Part shown: in pieces, positions 1-38,750 of the stretch
Layout: the number at the start of each line of letters is the position of its first letter
How positions within the stretch are numbered: position 1 is the stretch's first letter
Source: Escherichia coli
Lineage (GTDB): Bacteria > Pseudomonadota > Gammaproteobacteria > Enterobacterales > Enterobacteriaceae
Length of the DNA stretch: 64,000 nt
Reading direction: 5' to 3' (one strand)
Assembly (NCBI RefSeq): GCF_016026235.1
Contig: NZ_CP065613.1
Position numbers and translations under genes: made by a program
Notes under the pieces: generated by a model
Told to the model about the DNA's origin: nothing
Seen by the model: only the letters and a program-made list of their open reading frames with translations
The model's database searches: none

Positions 1-645
1 GCCAGAGCAAAAAATACTAAAGCTTTCCGTTTCACAAGTCAGGTTAATGACGCTATTAATCCTCCAAAACAACCAAGACAGCCACGAATTAGCGGAAACA
101 GAGCAATCACAGCAGCTTACTCAGCGAATATGAGCAAGCTAAAAGGCTTTGACCCTATTTTGCAGAAATACATCAAATCTCAATTTTACGGGCTATCTGC
201 TAAAGCTGGGGCAATGGATAATTCAAAATTCAATGAGAAGTTAGCTCAGTTAAATGCTTCAGTCAGAGAAGCAATTGCTAAAGCCAGAGGTCATACATCC
301 ACCAGCATTAATGGTGACAGAGCAGCTAGCAGCCTTGATAACCTGTCTTCAGCAGCAGTTAGAGCAGCAGGTGCATTTATCAGCTTTCAGGCTGTACTAT
401 CCGCTTATCAGCGAGTACTGGAAGTTGGTTTACAGCGTGCAAGTGCTGAACGTTCAATTGATTTCGTATTCGGTGACCAAAGTACACAGGTTAAAAAGTT
501 CATTCAGGATTTAACTCAAATTACTGGTATGGACACAACCGAAACACAAGCGCAATTTGCTTCATTTGGTGCATGAAGTGGCACACTGAATTTGGCCACC
601 TGAACAGAGGTGATATGCTCACCTCAGAACAACACAGGTGCTCCA

Positions 646-1814
<1,169 letters not shown>

Positions 1815-3088
1815 CCACTTCAGCAAGTGCAACGACTACGATGGGTCTTGAAGGGTCAGAAGAGCTATTTAAAAACCTTACAGGTTATGCTCGTTTAATG
1901 GGGCGTTCAGATGAGCAGATTCAAAGAGCATTAACCGCAGTGTCACAGATGGCCTCTAAGGGTCAGGTGATGGCTGAGGAGTTGAAGGGGCAATTATCTG
2001 AAGCTTTACCGGGTGCTACTCAGGCATTTGCAAAGGCTTTAGGTCTGACTGAAAAACAGCTTTTCGATAAGATGAAAAATGGTGATGTTAAAGCCTCTGA
2101 TGCACTTCCTAAGTTTGCTAAAGAACTTGGTGCACAGATTAATTCAAGAGGTGGCTGGAAAGCTATTCAGGATTCTACGCAGACGATGTTAGGAAACTTA
2201 AAGAATACTTGGAACAACTCACTAACGGATATTTTCAGAGGTTCTGAAAATGGTCTGCAAGATTTCACAAGAAGCCTAACAACGCTTTTAAACAGTTTAG
2301 GTGGAAGTGGTAAAAGTCTTGGTGAATCTCTTGGTAGCTTGATGAGCGATATGTCGCATGGTGTCGATAGTCTGACTGATATCAGCTACAGGGTGAGAGC
2401 GTTCTTTGATGAGGTGACATTAGCTTACCGTGGTTTAACCGATGAGCAAAAGAAAGTAGTTGATGCTTTAGGTTCTGGCTTGATTAATAGTTTAAAAGTC
2501 TTGGCTGGTGTTATTGCTGTAAATAAAGTTGTTGGTGTAACCAGAAGTATTTACGGGCTTATGACTGCTATCACAAGATTAGGTCAGGTCGCTGATACAA
2601 CAGCGGATAACGTGAATAGAAAGAATGGGAAACCATCAAGATTGAATCTTGGGAATATGCTATTAGCTGGTAGCGCTCTCTATGCAGGTTATGAAAGATT
2701 AGCCTCTACACCTGAACGAATGGAAGCACAAGCTAAATTACCAGAGCTGGCTAAAGAGTCTGGACTTAAACCCGCTTTCACTATGGATGATGTTAAAGGG
2801 TGGTTTAATAGTGCTGCTATGAATCTTGCTAACTTCCAGCATCCAGAATTAAACAACATTAAGCAAGATTCAGCATTAACGAGTGCAGATATCCAAAGCC
2901 TGAGAGATGAAATCTCCGCTTTGAGCAAACGTATTCAGGAGCCTGTGAAAGTTTCACTTGGTGGTGAAGTTGCCATTAAACCAGATGAAACCAGCTTTAT
3001 GACCTTTAGCAGTAATATCTACGACCAATATGCAGAAGCTACGCTATTAAGTTCATCATTCCCAGAAGATGATTAATAATAGTCGAAT

Positions 3089-3143
3089 GCTACGTGAATA
3101 AAGCAAAGTTAATACCCACACCAAAAGTTATTTTTCACGTAGC
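3089..3143. repeat. 10-bp perfect inverted repeat GCTACGTGAA / TTCACGTAGC with a 35-bp spacer
   Basis: Read directly in the intergenic region between the tape-measure gene and the next phage gene. Confidence 0.5.
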
Positions 3144-4111
3144 TCACGCTTAACAGAGAAAATACTTATATATCAAAGGAGAATTTAATGATTTACACTA
3201 ATCAGCTTCGTTACACTGGTAAAGATGGCGTTTACTTCCACTTAAGAGATAATGTAGATGCCTTCTTAACCTTATCAGCAACTGAAAACATGGAATTTGA
3301 TAGCCCTATGATGGTTACCACTCAAAATATGCAATCAGGGCAAACCGTCACAGATAATGTTCAAAGAGCACCCAGAACAATTACTATTAGTGGTGTGGTT
3401 GTAGTTGGTGAATCCGGTAGTATCCTTATCTCAAGAGATAATAAGCTGGTAGAAAACTTCATTGACACTCTTGAAAGCTGGCGTGACCAGAAGCAGATTA
3501 TTTCGGTCATCTGTAAAGACGGAATTAAAATTGATGATTCCATTATTACAAGCTTTAAAGCCTCTAAAGATGTTGGTATTTCAAATGGCCTAAGAATCCA
3601 GCTAACTTTTCAGGAAATTAACTTCAAAGCTATTGTGGGTCAAACTGATATTTCGGCTGCAACTGGAAAGACTGCTACCACAAATGATGGTGGTGCTACC
3701 AGTAAAAAGAATACAGGGAACACTACGACAAGTTTAGGTAATGGTATGTTGATGTGTCAGGAGCTATATAATCGCTCTACGAGTGAACTTACTAATGAGC
3801 AACTTCAAGCCCGTATCAATTGTGGTAAAAGTGTCAAAGTTGAGAATGGAAAAAGCACCTTCTCAGATGCCGCTAATGAGCAAGCTTCAAAGGTGCTTAA
3901 TAATGCTGGTACAGGTAGTGCGTATTTTCATGAAAGGAGATCACTCAATAACTTCCATCGAGATCGGGTAATAACATTTGAACAGATCGCTGAATAACAT
4001 CGATGGAGATCACTTTTGACTCATTTTGTTATTCAGTGATCTCCATCAATGTTATTGGAACTTCACAGGTGTGTTGATCTGTATCTTTTGCCATTCCGGT
4101 AAAGGATACCT

Positions 4112-5512
4112 ATGCCAACAGTTCCAATTTCTATGAGAAAACTTAAAGAAATTCTTAGGCTTAAATACGGTGTTGGACTCAGCCATCGACAAATTGGTCG
4201 TAGTCTTGCAATCTCCCCTTCCGTTGTATCCAGATATGCTAATCGGGCGGCTCAACTTGGCATAAAGCAGTGGCCCTTACCTACAGGATGGGATGATACA
4301 AAACTAAAACATGCGTTCCTTCAGACCCAGGTTAAGATGAAGAAGCACTCTCTGCCTGACTGGGCTACAGTACACTGGGAACTGCGTAATAAATGCGTGA
4401 CGCTGCAGCTACTCTGGGAAGAATACTGTGAGCGTAATCCAGGCGGTTTTTACAGCTATAACCATTACTGCCGGATGTACCGTGAATGGCTCAAAACCAC
4501 TTCACCATCAATGCGTCAGGTACATAAAGCTGGCGAAAAACTTTTCGTTGATTACTGTGGACCTACCGTTGGCGTTACCGACCCTGAGACCGGAGAAATA
4601 AGAACTGCTCAGGTCATCGTAGCTGTTCTCGGGGCATCAAGTTACACATGGGCAGAGGCCACCTGGTCTCAGCAGCTTGAAGACTGGGTGATGAGTCATG
4701 TTCGCTGCTTCCAGTGGTTGGGTGGCGTTCCTGAACTTGTTGTTCCGGACAATCTGAAAAGCGCCACATCCAGGGCATGTAAGTATGATCCTGACGTTAA
4801 CCCTACCTACCAGCAGATGCTTGAGCATTATAATGTCGCAGTTTTGCCTGCGCGGCCACGTAAACCGAAAGATAAAGCCAAAGCTGAAGTTGGCGTTCAG
4901 GTTGTTGAACGCTGGATCATGGCCCGAATCAGGCATGAGATCTTCTACAGCCTTGCATCGCTTAATCAGCGCATTCGGGAGTTGCTGGAAAGACTGAATA
5001 ACAAAATAATGCAGAAGTTGGGTTATTCACGTGCAGAACTCTTCATCCAGCTTGATAAACCCGCACTGAAGCCTCTTCCTGAAGCCAGTTACAGTTACAC
5101 CCTGGTGAAGAAAGTCAGAGTTCATGCCGATTACCACGTGGAAATCGACAAACATTACTACTCGGTTCCATGTTCGCTGTTAGGCCAGCAACTGGAAGCA
5201 TGGATCTCCGGAGAACTGGTAAGACTCTTCAATCAGGGGCAGGAGGTTGCTGTGCACCCGCGCAAGCGTACTTATGGCTACAGTACCCGCAACGAGCACA
5301 TGCCTGAAGCTCATCGACAGCATGCCACCTGGACGCCAGAGCGTCTTCTGGAATGGGCGGGGCACATAGGCAGTGAAACTCATAGTTATGTGCTTCATAT
5401 ACTGAACTCTCGTCCACATCCGGAACAAAGCTATCGCTTCTGCCTTGGACTCCTGAACCTTCATAAAAATACAGTAAAGCCAGACTTAATGCAGCATGTG
5501 CAAGAGCTCTGA
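4112..5512 (+). CDS. istA: IS21-family transposase IstA, apparently frameshifted near its 3' end
   Basis: N-terminal helix-turn-helix-like region MRKLKEILRLKYGVGLSHRQIGRSLAISPSVVSRYANRA and a DDE-type body. The ORF stops at 5512, but the -1 frame is open from 5467 to 5652 and ends 12 nt before istB. Confidence 0.8.
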   Translation: MPTVPISMRKLKEILRLKYGVGLSHRQIGRSLAISPSVVSRYANRAAQLGIKQWPLPTGWDDTKLKHAFLQTQVKMKKHSLPDWATVHWELRNKCVTLQLLWEEYCERNPGGFYSYNHYCRMYREWLKTTSPSMRQVHKAGEKLFVDYCGPTVGVTDPETGEIRTAQVIVAVLGASSYTWAEATWSQQLEDWVMSHVRCFQWLGGVPELVVPDNLKSATSRACKYDPDVNPTYQQMLEHYNVAVLPARPRKPKDKAKAEVGVQVVERWIMARIRHEIFYSLASLNQRIRELLERLNNKIMQKLGYSRAELFIQLDKPALKPLPEASYSYTLVKKVRVHADYHVEIDKHYYSVPCSLLGQQLEAWISGELVRLFNQGQEVAVHPRKRTYGYSTRNEHMPEAHRQHATWTPERLLEWAGHIGSETHSYVLHILNSRPHPEQSYRFCLGLLNLHKNTVKPDLMQHVQEL

Positions 5513-5663
5513 AAACAAAGGTATGGCGTCTGTCAGGTATTAAATCGATCCTGGAAAAAGGTCTGGATAAACAACCTGTTCAGGATCCAAAACCAGATCT
5601 GTTATCCACGATGGAACACGAAAACGTACGCGGCAGTGAGTATTACCACTGATACGGGATCCA

Positions 5664-6413
5664 ATGATGAATCATCTTTACGAACAACTGACCGCACTTA
5701 AACTCACCGGCTTCCGTGATGCGCTTAAAAAGCAACTTGCTCAGCCGGGCACATACCAGGAGCTGGGCTTCGAAGAACGCCTGTCATTACTGACAGCAGA
5801 AGAACTAACCTGCCGTGAAAACAGGAAGGCAGAGCGTCTGATCAAACATGCACGGTTCAGACTTAATGCTGAGTTATCAAAGCTGGATTATCGTAACAAT
5901 AGAGGGCTGGACAGGGCCCTCATCCGTTCACTCAGTCAGGGAAACTGGTTAACCCTGAAACAAAATATTTTACTGACCGGGGCCACCGGCAGCGGTAAAA
6001 CGTTCCTGGCATGTGCACTTGGTCATAATGCCTGCCGACAGGGATACAAGGTCTACTATTATCGCCTTAAAGCGCTGATGGAACAGTGCTATCAGGGGCA
6101 TGCTGATGGAAGATACAGCAAACTTTTGACTAGGCTGAATAATAGCGATCTGCTGCTTCTGGATGACTGGGGGCTGGAACCTCTCTCATCAGAACAGCGT
6201 AGCGACCTGCTGGAAATAGTGGATCTGATGTACCAACGAGGCTCAATCATCGTAGTGAGCCAGTTGCCGGTGGAAAACTGGTACAAAATGATCGGAGACT
6301 CCACACATGCGGATGCCATCCTAGATCGACTGGTTCATGGCAGTATCAAGATTGAACTTAAAGGAGAATCAATGCGGAAAATACAATCTCCGTTGACCGA
6401 AGGAGATCAGTGA
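5664..6413 (+). CDS. istB: IS21-family helper ATPase IstB
   Basis: Walker A motif LLTGATGSGKTFLACALG and DnaC-like layout, located immediately after istA. Confidence 0.9.
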   Translation: MMNHLYEQLTALKLTGFRDALKKQLAQPGTYQELGFEERLSLLTAEELTCRENRKAERLIKHARFRLNAELSKLDYRNNRGLDRALIRSLSQGNWLTLKQNILLTGATGSGKTFLACALGHNACRQGYKVYYYRLKALMEQCYQGHADGRYSKLLTRLNNSDLLLLDDWGLEPLSSEQRSDLLEIVDLMYQRGSIIVVSQLPVENWYKMIGDSTHADAILDRLVHGSIKIELKGESMRKIQSPLTEGDQ

Positions 6414-6560
6414 AGGTAATTTAAAAACGGTTCTGTGAAAGTGACACGAACCGATCTCCATCGATGTTACTCACCGATCTCCTTCACGGTAATACGCAGG
6501 TAGTACTTTGAAGAAGTTTAGTGTGAATCCTAACAAGCGATACTGACGATAGAATCTCAA

Positions 6561-8090
6561 CTATATGATAACCTCATCAACATCTATTAAACCCCTCTCA
6601 GTGACTTCAGAAAGCGACTGTATAGCCTCTGTAACGTCCTCTGAGGGGTTTTCTGTTATTGGTAGGTCAATTACCTTACCGTTGTGAAAAGTTACTTTAC
6701 AGCGACGTTTAGCGGCATCTATAACTATTTCTTTGAGTACGCCCTTGATAAGTAGCTGTGTCTCTACCATCCCTTCCTTTGTTGTCCTGTCAATATCTTT
6801 GAGGCTTCCAGTTGTGATGGCCTTTATCCGCTGTGTTTCCTCTTCGATATCATGATTGAGTTTTGATAGCGCATTCTTCATATCACGTAATTTCTCTGTG
6901 ATAATTGTCATGTCATCGAGTTCAATAGCGAGTTCTGCCATTTTTGAGATTTTACGCTGCAAATCTTCACGCTGTAATTTAAGGCTATCAATAGTGTCAG
7001 TATTTTCAGTTTCAAAACGGTCGCATAATGCGAGCATGTAAAGGATAGTTGCATCCGTTTGCTTACGACTGATAGCCTTTGCACTACACCTGTTAGCTGA
7101 ACGATTAGGACATCTGTACATCCCAAAACGTTTTAAGGCATATCCACCAAGAACAATAGTAGCCCCACACTCAGAACATTTGATGATACCCCTGAACAAG
7201 TTGACTGATAGCGGATTACTTGATACAGAAGCCCTACCATATTGCCCTGTGTTCAGTTGCTGTACTCGATAGAATAGTGACTCACTGATTATTGCGGGGT
7301 AGTAACCCTGAACTTCTTCACGTCCAGCAGGTGTGAAACATCCAATCACAGCACGATTTCTGAGTAGTTTCTTTACAGCAGTATCAGACCATCCCTTTTG
7401 TTTAGGTGTGTATTGATTCAATGACAAGTGGCCTTCATCGTTTAAAGTTCTGGTGATAGCCCAAAAGCTTAAACCCTGTAATCTCAGGTCAAATGCTCGT
7501 TTAACAACTTCCACTTTATCGGGGATGATAGTGAATGTTCGACGGTCATCATTCAGCCTTAACCATGCAGGACAACGCCTAGATACCTTGATACCTTCGG
7601 AGATGAGTTCTTTTTTACGGTTCCATGCAGCTTGGACACGCTCAGACTTCCTCAGACTTTCCTCATGCGCCCGCTGCATTATCAGAATGCTTTTAATCAG
7701 GGATAACGGGTCTTTTAAACTTTCTCGTGTGTAATGTTCACCATCGGACAGGGTGACTACATCTACACCAGCCCTTAAGATACGGCGTAATAGCTCAGAA
7801 GCAATATCAATATCCTGACGTGACAGACGGTCTAAACTCTCGATTAGTAGCGTATCACCAGCTTTAACAAGCCCTTTCTCGATAGCGGTTAGAAAGTCAC
7901 CTAGACCACCTTTCAGGTGCTTACCACTAAAAGCACTTTTCCCCAAATCTTTAAAGCTCAAGGATGAATCCAAGTAAAACTCAGGGTTCTTATCAAGCCA
8001 GTCAGTAACCAGCTTAGATTGTCTGCGTACAGAGTCCCCTTTTAGTTGTCGTTCACTTGAAAATCTGATGTAGCTGATTGCCCGTCTCAT
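6561..8090 (-). CDS. Large serine recombinase (phage integrase type)
   Basis: N-terminal resolvase-like catalytic region (AISYIRFSSERQ), a cysteine-rich zinc-ribbon-like segment (CSECGATIV...YRCPNRSANRCS) and a C-terminal extension. ATG at 8088-8090 is preferred over the TTG at 8096 used by the ORF track. Confidence 0.85.
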   Translation of the reverse strand: MRRAISYIRFSSERQLKGDSVRRQSKLVTDWLDKNPEFYLDSSLSFKDLGKSAFSGKHLKGGLGDFLTAIEKGLVKAGDTLLIESLDRLSRQDIDIASELLRRILRAGVDVVTLSDGEHYTRESLKDPLSLIKSILIMQRAHEESLRKSERVQAAWNRKKELISEGIKVSRRCPAWLRLNDDRRTFTIIPDKVEVVKRAFDLRLQGLSFWAITRTLNDEGHLSLNQYTPKQKGWSDTAVKKLLRNRAVIGCFTPAGREEVQGYYPAIISESLFYRVQQLNTGQYGRASVSSNPLSVNLFRGIIKCSECGATIVLGGYALKRFGMYRCPNRSANRCSAKAISRKQTDATILYMLALCDRFETENTDTIDSLKLQREDLQRKISKMAELAIELDDMTIITEKLRDMKNALSKLNHDIEEETQRIKAITTGSLKDIDRTTKEGMVETQLLIKGVLKEIVIDAAKRRCKVTFHNGKVIDLPITENPSEDVTEAIQSLSEVTERGLIDVDEVII

Positions 8091-8094
8091 ATTC

Positions 8095-8130
8095 AATACC
8101 TAAAATGATGTGTTTAGGAACCCATTATAC
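8095..8130. other. Prophage-chromosome junction (attR-type site) within mdtG
   Basis: mdtG-like codons diverge from the recalled K-12 sequence about 8120-8128 and are followed by phage-derived codons MGS and a stop. Inverted repeat CCTAAA-N8-TTTAGG at 8099-8118. Confidence 0.5.
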
Positions 8131-8311: not shown

Positions 8312-8482
8312 AGCAATCCGCTATTGGTGCGCCAGGCGCGGTGAACATAAGAAGAAAAGATAAGCACACTAATTATGCGCCCGACTTCCAGGGGGTGCAA
8401 TCCAGAGAGCTTTTATCGCTAAATCAGGGGGATTTGCTGTGGTAATGCCGGATGCCATTCTGAAGCATCCGGCATGGAAGAT

Positions 8483-10680: not shown

Positions 10681-10688
10681 ATATCATT

Positions 10689-10710
10689 GCCGGATGCGTG
10701 CCATCCGGCA
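10689..10710. terminator. Hairpin GCCGGATG-N5-CATCCGGC between convergent yceA and yceI
   Basis: Perfect 8-bp inverted repeat read directly between two convergent genes. Confidence 0.5.
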
Positions 10711-10721
10711 ACATTTCACTC

Positions 10722-38654: not shown

Positions 38655-38750
38655 AGCCTGATAATGGGCGGTTGGCCTGATAAGGCGTTTACGCCGCATC
38701 AGGCCGCCTGCACCGATTGCCGGATGCGACGTAACCGCATCCGGCGCAAA
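38655..38750. repeat. REP-type palindromic units between rluC and yceF
   Basis: GCCTGATAAGGCGTTTACGCCGCATCAGGC and GCCGGATGCGACGTAACCGCATCCGGC read directly. Confidence 0.7.

Follow-up and report, generated by a model that had tools for sequence, protein, structure and literature searches.

Several bacterial operators are built from two inverted half-sites held apart by a spacer, as in those of PaaX (TGATTC-N27-GAATCA) and NikR (GTATGA-N16-TCATAC), and in bioO of BirA. The lambda sib/tI retroregulator places a terminator within a larger, RNase III-sensitive hairpin beside int. In P1 parS, the ParB box A heptamer ATTTCAC flanks an IHF bend, and the half-site of chromosomal parS reads TTTCAC-GTGAAA. 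Here, we compare these systems with a dyad from a 64,000-nucleotide stretch of Escherichia coli DNA (the window), whose two 10-bp arms enclose 35 nt and which recurs in many mobile elements.

The dyad resembles the PaaX, NikR, and bioO sites in its inverted half-sites, its long spacer of fixed length and free sequence, and its position at or near promoters. Unlike them, it has longer half-sites (9-16 bp) with a gap of 25-35 bp, and instead of belonging to a single regulon it turns up in many mobile elements that are unrelated to one another. As in lambda sib/tI, some copies hold a small terminator-like hairpin and a T-run within a longer palindrome that adjoins a recombinase gene; in contrast to sib/tI, the dyad lies upstream of that gene, combines a conserved arm sequence with a loop of constant length, and has the T-run in only ~20% of copies. 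ParB box A is echoed by those arms whose first spacer position is A (both sides in 31 of 68 copies), which contain GTGAAAT...ATTTCAC, and two arms flanking a spacer of ~31-35 bp are reminiscent of boxes A1 and A2 around the IHF site of P1 parS. However, conservation of the dyad peaks outside the heptamer (at CTAC and TCTG) while the CAC part of the heptamer varies, box B is missing, and the window copy reads GTGAATA/TTTTCAC. Furthermore, we know of no ParB link for many of the replicons that host the dyad. The resemblance to PaaX/NikR-type operators, lambda sib/tI, and ParB box A may be likeness rather than membership in any of them.

Two classes of repeat also share features with the dyad. 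Like REP/REPIN elements, it is a short extragenic palindrome with GTAG at the outer edge of each arm; it differs in its 1-3 copies per genome (among the matches listed) rather than hundreds, its location mostly on mobile elements, its arms that are identical across bacterial orders where REPs are species-specific, and the lack of any RAYT gene seen nearby. Like attC sites (59-base elements), it is an imperfect palindrome with conserved ends and a variable center; some of its copies border a gene, and a tyrosine recombinase gene is close by in many cases. Unlike attC, the dyad has no RYYYAAC/GTTRRRY core pair, is of fixed length instead of 57-141 bp, and comes without cassette arrays or IntI.

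The inverted repeat and its island

A check of the sequence confirmed the perfect 10-bp inverted repeat and the 35-nt A+T-rich spacer reported in the preliminary description: the right arm is the exact reverse complement of the left, and the spacer is 71% A+T. The features of the region are as follows.

4-573, plus strand: tape-measure gene, N-terminal fragment (amino acids 77-261), extending beyond the start of the window
574-1823: IS911, which splits the tape-measure gene (99% identical to IS911 of phage Sf6)
1841-3076, plus strand: tape-measure gene, C-terminal fragment (amino acids 267-678), within the open reading frame 1808-3076
3089-3098: left arm GCTACGTGAA, with the family core CTACGTGAA at 3090-3098; unchanged across all related islands
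3099-3133: A+T-rich spacer of 35 nt, with the island-specific motif TAATACCCACAC
3134-3143: right arm TTCACGTAGC, with the family core TTCACGTAG at 3134-3142
3143-3155, plus strand: conserved flank CTCACGCTTAAC adjoining the right arm, from comparison of islands; CGCACGCTTA in some P1-like copies
3172-3179, plus strand: ATCAAAGG, junction of a 46-bp deletion, from comparison with E. coli relatives
3188-3997, plus strand: Dit-like "phage baseplate protein" gene (Pfam PF21821, Dit_like)
3919-6498: IS21-family element (istA/istB), abutting the 3' end of the Dit-like gene
6561-8096, minus strand: large serine recombinase of the island

A gap of 111 bp separates the tape-measure stop codon (3074-3076) from the ATG that follows it (3188), and the dyad sits within this gap. 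It lies downstream of the tape-measure gene, as had been described, with the left arm beginning 12 nt past the stop codon. Allowing one mismatch extends the repeat to 13 nt (3089-3101/3131-3143), and the inner motif WTCTG...CAGAW that is typical of the family is missing from this copy. In relatives, the 46 bp missing from the window sits downstream of the dyad between two direct copies of ATCAAAGG.

Perfect inverted repeats of 10 bp or longer whose arms stand 3-60 nt apart number 16 in the window, against 2.7 ± 1.8 expected from first-order Markov simulations. Since about three 10-bp inverted repeats are expected by chance per 64-kb window, the repeat by itself is statistically unremarkable, and the significance of the dyad rests on conservation and recurrence rather than on repeat statistics. 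The 9-mer CTACGTGAA does not occur a second time within the 64-kb window. Another perfect inverted repeat, of 11 bp with a 31-nt gap (TGAATCTTGCT ... AGCAAGATTCA, 2820-2873), lies within the tape-measure coding sequence, and ordinary REP-type palindromes (GCCGGATG...) are found in the chromosomal part of the window at 8445-8475, 10687-10711, and 38719-38745.

The surroundings were described as phage DNA, a view that we have to revise. Core genes flanking the region, solA, trhO, lpxL, and yceI among them, match E. coli at 99.7% identity, and the first 8 kb of the window is a decayed island in an E. coli/Shigella chromosome, not a phage genome. Its tape-measure gene is FelixO1-like, and the Dit-like gene shares ~90% nucleotide identity with the Felixounavirus gene next after the tape-measure gene. 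In true FelixO1-like phages these two genes abut with no gap between them; therefore, a homologous gap is absent from those phages. The island spacer motif TAATACCCACAC was also not found in the FelixO1-like phage tail region. Of 5,426 complete E. coli genomes, 394 (about 7%) have related islands of ~11-13 kb, which occupy three or more integration sites: yecE, ymdF-wrbA, and, in this window, next to solA (examples are window 1-8096, locus L012 35240-48125, and loci L013, L014, and L015). Their other cargo consists of small uncharacterized genes and an HNH endonuclease, joined in some by a Dam-like methyltransferase and an HTH protein. The tape-measure and Dit-like genes are the sole virion genes of the islands; Felixounavirus, the source of the ~90% DNA match, is strictly lytic. 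The island has the look of a FelixO1-like phage satellite, or else of an island that interferes with tail assembly. Given IS911 in the tape-measure gene, the IS21-family element by the Dit-like gene, and the 46-bp loss, the window dyad is probably an inherited relic, perhaps inactive.

A two-part motif with fixed spacing

Lack of conservation in homologous regions, which the preliminary description named as evidence against the dyad, was not what we observed: the dyad is the best conserved part of the intergenic region. Across 21 related island loci, the arms are unchanged or carry single transitions only, and the spacer is always 35 nt with its sequence swapped. When nine E. coli islands were aligned, the arm columns were invariant save for C-to-T transitions in the right arm (TTTACGTAG, TTCATGTAG), and only 2 of the 35 spacer columns were invariant. 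The islands hold at least four versions of the spacer, unrelated or partly related, each exactly 35 nt long. A second copy of the dyad lies 22 nt upstream of the tape-measure start codon in loci L015-L018, L022, and L026; in L015-L018 and L022 the tape-measure gene has a copy on either side. A third, degenerate copy (CTACGTGAA-N35-TCTTCGTAG) is present in the large non-coding left region of islands L012 (37798-37910) and L014 (10139-10246). A perfect 12-bp palindrome, ATCTACGTAGAT, comes after it in L012; L014 has an additional right arm, CAGATTTCATGTAG, ~100 nt past the left arm.

Islands included, the dyad motif was found at more than 140 loci in phages, plasmids, and genomic islands across Gammaproteobacteria, with the extended consensus (G)CG-CTACGTGAA-WTCTG-N25-CAGAW-TTCACGTAG-CG(C). 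Among viral contigs, 23 loci match CTACGTGAA-N35-TTYAYGTAG. When perfect arms with 20-50 nt between them were allowed in the same contigs, the spacing was exactly 35 nt in 12 of 15 matches, and in a scan anchored on a single arm all partner arms with up to two mismatches sat exactly 35 nt away. A scan of one genome per species returned at least ~120 loci. The main hosts among the matches listed were Pantoea, Erwinia, Rahnella, Buttiauxella, Klebsiella, Yersinia, Xenorhabdus, Alteromonas, Shewanella, Moritella, Colwellia, and Azotobacter; these genomes hold one to three copies each. The outer CTAC and inner AA of the arms never vary, and changes, all transitions, are confined to central positions 5-7. 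The arm sequence is identical across bacterial orders, and no compensatory changes were seen in scans that all needed at least one exact arm, so that copies with compensatory arm changes would be missed. We found no description of the motif in the searchable literature, including papers on P1 loxP and Cre-type recombinases; a two-part motif with a fixed 35-bp gap has apparently not been described so far.

The same arms and spacing at more than 140 independent loci, together with arms kept while the spacer is swapped in islands, refute a chance inverted repeat without biological meaning. Although a 64-kb window should contain ~2.7 perfect 10-bp repeats at spacings of 3-60 nt, we regard such an origin as extremely improbable.

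Isolated or embedded arms were seen as well. Viral contig L028 (4577-4660) has two direct right arms 21 nt apart, TTCACGTAGctcactgcgtgagtgtactatTTCACGTAGcacacg. In T7-like phages of several genera, a lone 14-16-mer, (C)GCTACGTGAAATCTG, lies ~12 nt upstream of the ribosome-binding site of gene 18.5 (Rz-like), near the T7 "E" promoter region (for example, phage Berlin, L044 1182-1290, L167-L175, and others) and outside any predicted long helix; RNase III processing sites of the T7 R18.5 kind are cleaved within a helix of ~20 bp. With a BLAST E value of ~8 and effectively one lineage, the 16-mer was left out of the evidence; it may be a coincidence or a solitary half-site. In Azotobacter beijerinckii DSM 378 (L154-L162), the dyad is at the center of a 185-bp MITE with at least 10 copies at unrelated loci. 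The MITE ends are CTCAGAGGTTGTGAAAAAAT ... ATTTTTCACAGCCTCTCAG, with CTCAG at each end, and these terminal repeats differ from the dyad.

Gene context of the dyad

The usual position of the dyad is 19-45 nt upstream of the start codon of a Cre-like or ResD-like recombinase gene. A tally of neighbors covered 143 loci listed, among which were the following.

Cre-like tyrosine recombinase, 32 loci: gene start toward the dyad, at a median distance of 38-39 nt
ResD-like recombinase (~250 amino acids), 8 loci: dyad 23 nt ahead of the ATG
Tape-measure/Dit islands, 9 loci: dyad flanks the tape-measure gene
Core site in the emtA/cupin gene interval (Rahnella and relatives), 7 loci: dyad ~38 nt ahead of the cupin gene

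In phages P1 (L040) and P7 (L039), the dyad is at nt 119-171, with the Dam sites of the cre regulatory region on one side and cra-cre on the other; in P1 it lies between loxP and cre. There it forms a palindrome with a 17-bp stem, GCGCTACGTAAAATCTG...CAGATTTCGCGTAGCGC, that is unannotated in either record. The annotated P3cre -10 of P1 (TAAAAT, nt 124-129) falls within the left arm. Genes downstream of the P1-family copy vary, being either cra alone or open reading frames of 68 and 356 amino acids plus cra. Divergent Cre-like loci share one order: a lox-like site (13-8-13), 35-190 bp, the dyad, ~20-40 nt, and the recombinase gene. The lox arms differ between these systems, whereas the dyad arms are identical. 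In P1-like contigs, a 123-nt match to the tRNA model, unusually long for a tRNA, lies ~435 nt from the dyad in the interval between the lox site and coi (L037 2425-2547, L027 1926-2048, L032 12885-13008).

Plasmids of the Dre/rox type retain only the gene-proximal arm (TTCGCGTAGCG), 31 nt ahead of the ATG and downstream of a strong promoter, TTGACA-N18-TCGAAT. At more distant Cre-like genes (Shewanella, Vibrio, Klebsiella, Methylobacterium) the dyad is absent. A Methylobacterium plasmid (L355) has a different perfect palindrome of 17 bp with a 13-nt gap, ATATCACTCATGGGGAG...CTCCCCATGAGTGATAT, ~110 nt upstream of its Cre-like gene, in a position analogous to that of the dyad. A scan of viral contigs for Cre homologs returned P1 Cre loci of ~99% identity only and was uninformative. 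At Pantoea-type loci, predicted sigma-70-like promoters either precede the dyad or lie inside it, with none in the interval that separates it from the ATG; a sigma-70 promoter scan of the window gap gave no match. A mini-ORF through the right arm was considered and rejected, as it was confined to one Pantoea subgroup in sequences read by eye.

Operator, RNA hairpin, or recombination signal

The dyad did not fit the following described classes of site. An intrinsic (Rho-independent) terminator has a GC-rich stem, a 3-8-nt loop, and an immediate T-run, whereas the arms here would enclose a loop of 35 nt and the right arm is not followed by a T-run; no terminator-like sites were found on either strand of window positions 2700-3500 or in the E. 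coli homolog, and the earlier remark that the spacer is long for a simple terminator holds, a terminator loop being far shorter. Rfam models gave only chance-level matches in window 2700-3500 (E > 3), only tRNA in 14 related loci at the gathering threshold, and only miRNA-like matches far under threshold in the P1 copy. A lox-type core site has 11-14-bp arms and a crossover spacer of 6-8 bp, as against the 35 bp of the dyad (25 bp between extended arms). In integron attC terms, GCTTAAC occurs on one side only, the length is fixed, and neither IntI nor arrays are among the neighbors. REP/BIME elements number tens to hundreds per genome as species-specific 35-40-bp palindromes; the dyad has one copy in 64 kb and the same arms across orders. 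A MITE has terminal inverted repeats, several copies at unrelated loci, and both empty and filled sites, whereas window and island copies of the dyad are single and positionally fixed, the Azotobacter dyad being cargo inside a MITE. The attP site of a large serine recombinase is a quasi-palindrome of ~50 bp, symmetric about a central dinucleotide, whose single copy is split on integration, whereas the dyad has an asymmetric and unpaired interior and two to three intact copies inside integrated islands; P1-like phages and Pantoea plasmids, moreover, carry the motif in places where no nearby serine integrase was seen. The P1 Lpa late promoters LPmat, LPpro, and LPlyz (a 9-bp -22 box, AACAAGTGA-like, 4 nt before the -10) are unrelated to the arms. 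A CRP site (TGTGA-N6-TCACA in 22 bp) does not fit, since GTGA and TCAC of the arms stand 37 bp apart; the CRP-like site of E. coli abgA-abgR has one arm in common (TTCACGTAGCG) and no partner arm. On inspection only, sites for sigma-32, sigma-E, and sigma-54, RfaH ops, boxA, Xer/dif, matS, and T7-type promoters all mismatched at key positions.

From the observed anatomy, conservation, strict spacing, distribution, and gene context, we infer DNA binding, a factor, and a regulatory outcome: the reading we favor, tentatively and at somewhat less than even probability, is that a putative factor would recognize the dyad in double-stranded DNA by its sequence, as an operator-like element of two parts. 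The dyad comprises two inverted half-sites of ~16 bp each (CG-CTACGTGAA-WTCTG), of which the window copy retains only the 9-10-bp core. With the 9-mer cores 35 bp apart edge to edge and 44 bp center to center, about four helical turns, a putative dimeric or tetrameric factor could touch both half-sites along one face of the helix. Because the dyad lies at or just downstream of promoters, 19-45 nt ahead of start codons, binding would gate downstream transcription. Across Gammaproteobacteria, mobile elements have the dyad module ahead of recombinase genes, and the island family has it ahead of the tape-measure and Dit genes, the two captured tail genes of FelixO1-like origin. We know of no operator consensus that fits the motif.

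The preliminary description had offered a protein-binding dyad or an RNA structure; both are still live explanations. The main rival to the operator, which we think possible though rather unlikely, is that the dyad acts as an RNA element in an mRNA leader or between cistrons, its arms pairing into a long hairpin in transcripts that span both. Such a hairpin might, on a similarly doubtful footing, attenuate read-through transcription into the downstream gene, insulate that gene from it, or form a site of RNA processing or stability, with RNase III as one candidate enzyme, and copies that enclose a small terminator-like hairpin and U-run might, with no greater confidence, follow a logic like that of lambda sib/tI. 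Perfect complementarity of the arms and good RNA folding favor the hairpin and count against the operator: folding was better than in shuffled sequences, with z-scores of -3.6 for the window copy and -4.4 to -9 for the P1 and Enterobacter copies, although the interior of the window copy is almost without structure. So do the covariation of spacer positions 1 and 35 (A-T 31, T-A 18, thus 49 Watson-Crick pairs against 35 expected) and a modest pairing excess in the flanks, with palindromic extension in some copies (such as the 22-nt arms of L088), neither of which an operator needs. The position 12 nt past the tape-measure stop codon and 19-45 nt ahead of start codons would also suit an RNA element, and in Dre-type plasmids the strong upstream promoter means that the element is transcribed as a leader. 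In the Pantoea group, an inner GC hairpin and T-run are co-oriented with the recombinase gene; a small GC hairpin with a T-run occurs in ~20% of spacer groups, which speaks against an operator. The low share of T-runs in turn counts for recognition as duplex DNA, and it led us to reject the idea that all copies have an intrinsic terminator in the spacer. Arm variants in islands are G.U-compatible on the sense strand, whereas at Pantoea-type loci the variant arm makes an A.C mismatch in sense RNA. An apparent excess of wobble-compatible arms is uninformative, since any transition that makes G.U on one strand makes A.C on the opposite one; wobble-type variants showed no strand bias overall, and the variant arm had none with respect to T-runs or genes. 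At spacer positions 2-5, the symmetric pairs (TCTG/CAGA) form no more commonly than independent conservation predicts, with the interior unpaired, and this asymmetric interior, as read by eye, faces either way relative to the gene (P1/Alteromonas versus the Pantoea group). The pairing result and the free orientation both favor recognition of duplex DNA. A fixed 35-nt loop of unrelated sequence is unexpected for a hairpin, and invariant arms lacking compensatory changes (within the exact-arm scans) argue against one; conversely, island arms kept while the spacer changes in sequence but not in length, and conservation of sequence rather than pairing (CTAC and AA fixed, central transitions only), support the operator. 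Half-sites also persist singly at conserved positions, as in the Dre/rox-type plasmids, and the promoter-proximal position in P1 and at Pantoea-type predicted promoters points the same way. Since the P3cre -10 of P1 lies within the left arm, its transcript should begin in the spacer, without the left arm. The missing Rfam matches and terminator calls further weigh against the hairpin.

A DNA-level signal for recombination or mobility, or a conserved module boundary for cassette exchange, with no regulatory role, would account for several of the same observations. Copies bracketing the tape-measure gene in several islands would mark that gene as an exchangeable module, and the P1-family copy is followed by varying genes. 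The dyad repeatedly adjoins tyrosine recombinase genes and is carried within the Azotobacter MITE, and the half-sites are long (16-23 bp) in the manner of transposon ends. However, genuine lox-like 13-8-13 sites are separate, lying 35-190 bp upstream in four Cre-like loci and also present in P1/P7, and differences between lox arms are not matched by any in the dyad arms. Core sites of tyrosine or serine recombinases do not allow a spacer of 25-35 bp, the 57-bp unit shows neither target-site duplications nor insertion polymorphism, the dyad of the MITE is central cargo rather than a terminal repeat, and copies number only 1-3 per genome among the species-scan matches listed. Overall, we judge a recombination signal improbable.

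To return to the operator, it is conceivable, if rather doubtful, that the dyad belongs to a widely conserved, unrecognized cis-regulatory system, in which a host or mobile-element factor would act on CG-CTACGTGAA-WTCTG half-sites 25 bp apart. No more firmly, such a system might control recombinase genes and hijacked structural genes in phages, phage-plasmids, plasmids, IS derivatives, and FelixO1-related islands. For the window itself, a copy in a decayed island, this carries little weight; the interest is in the family that the dyad reveals. The motif offers a compact, easily searched marker of such modules and a candidate part for recombinase control in Gammaproteobacteria. If the dyad is a true regulatory site, it would provide a handle on how the captured tail genes of FelixO1-related tape-measure/Dit islands are switched on. 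One common module, through a factor as yet unnamed, would then control recombinase expression in many mobile elements, including the natural lox-cre locus of P1, among the most used DNA segments in biology.
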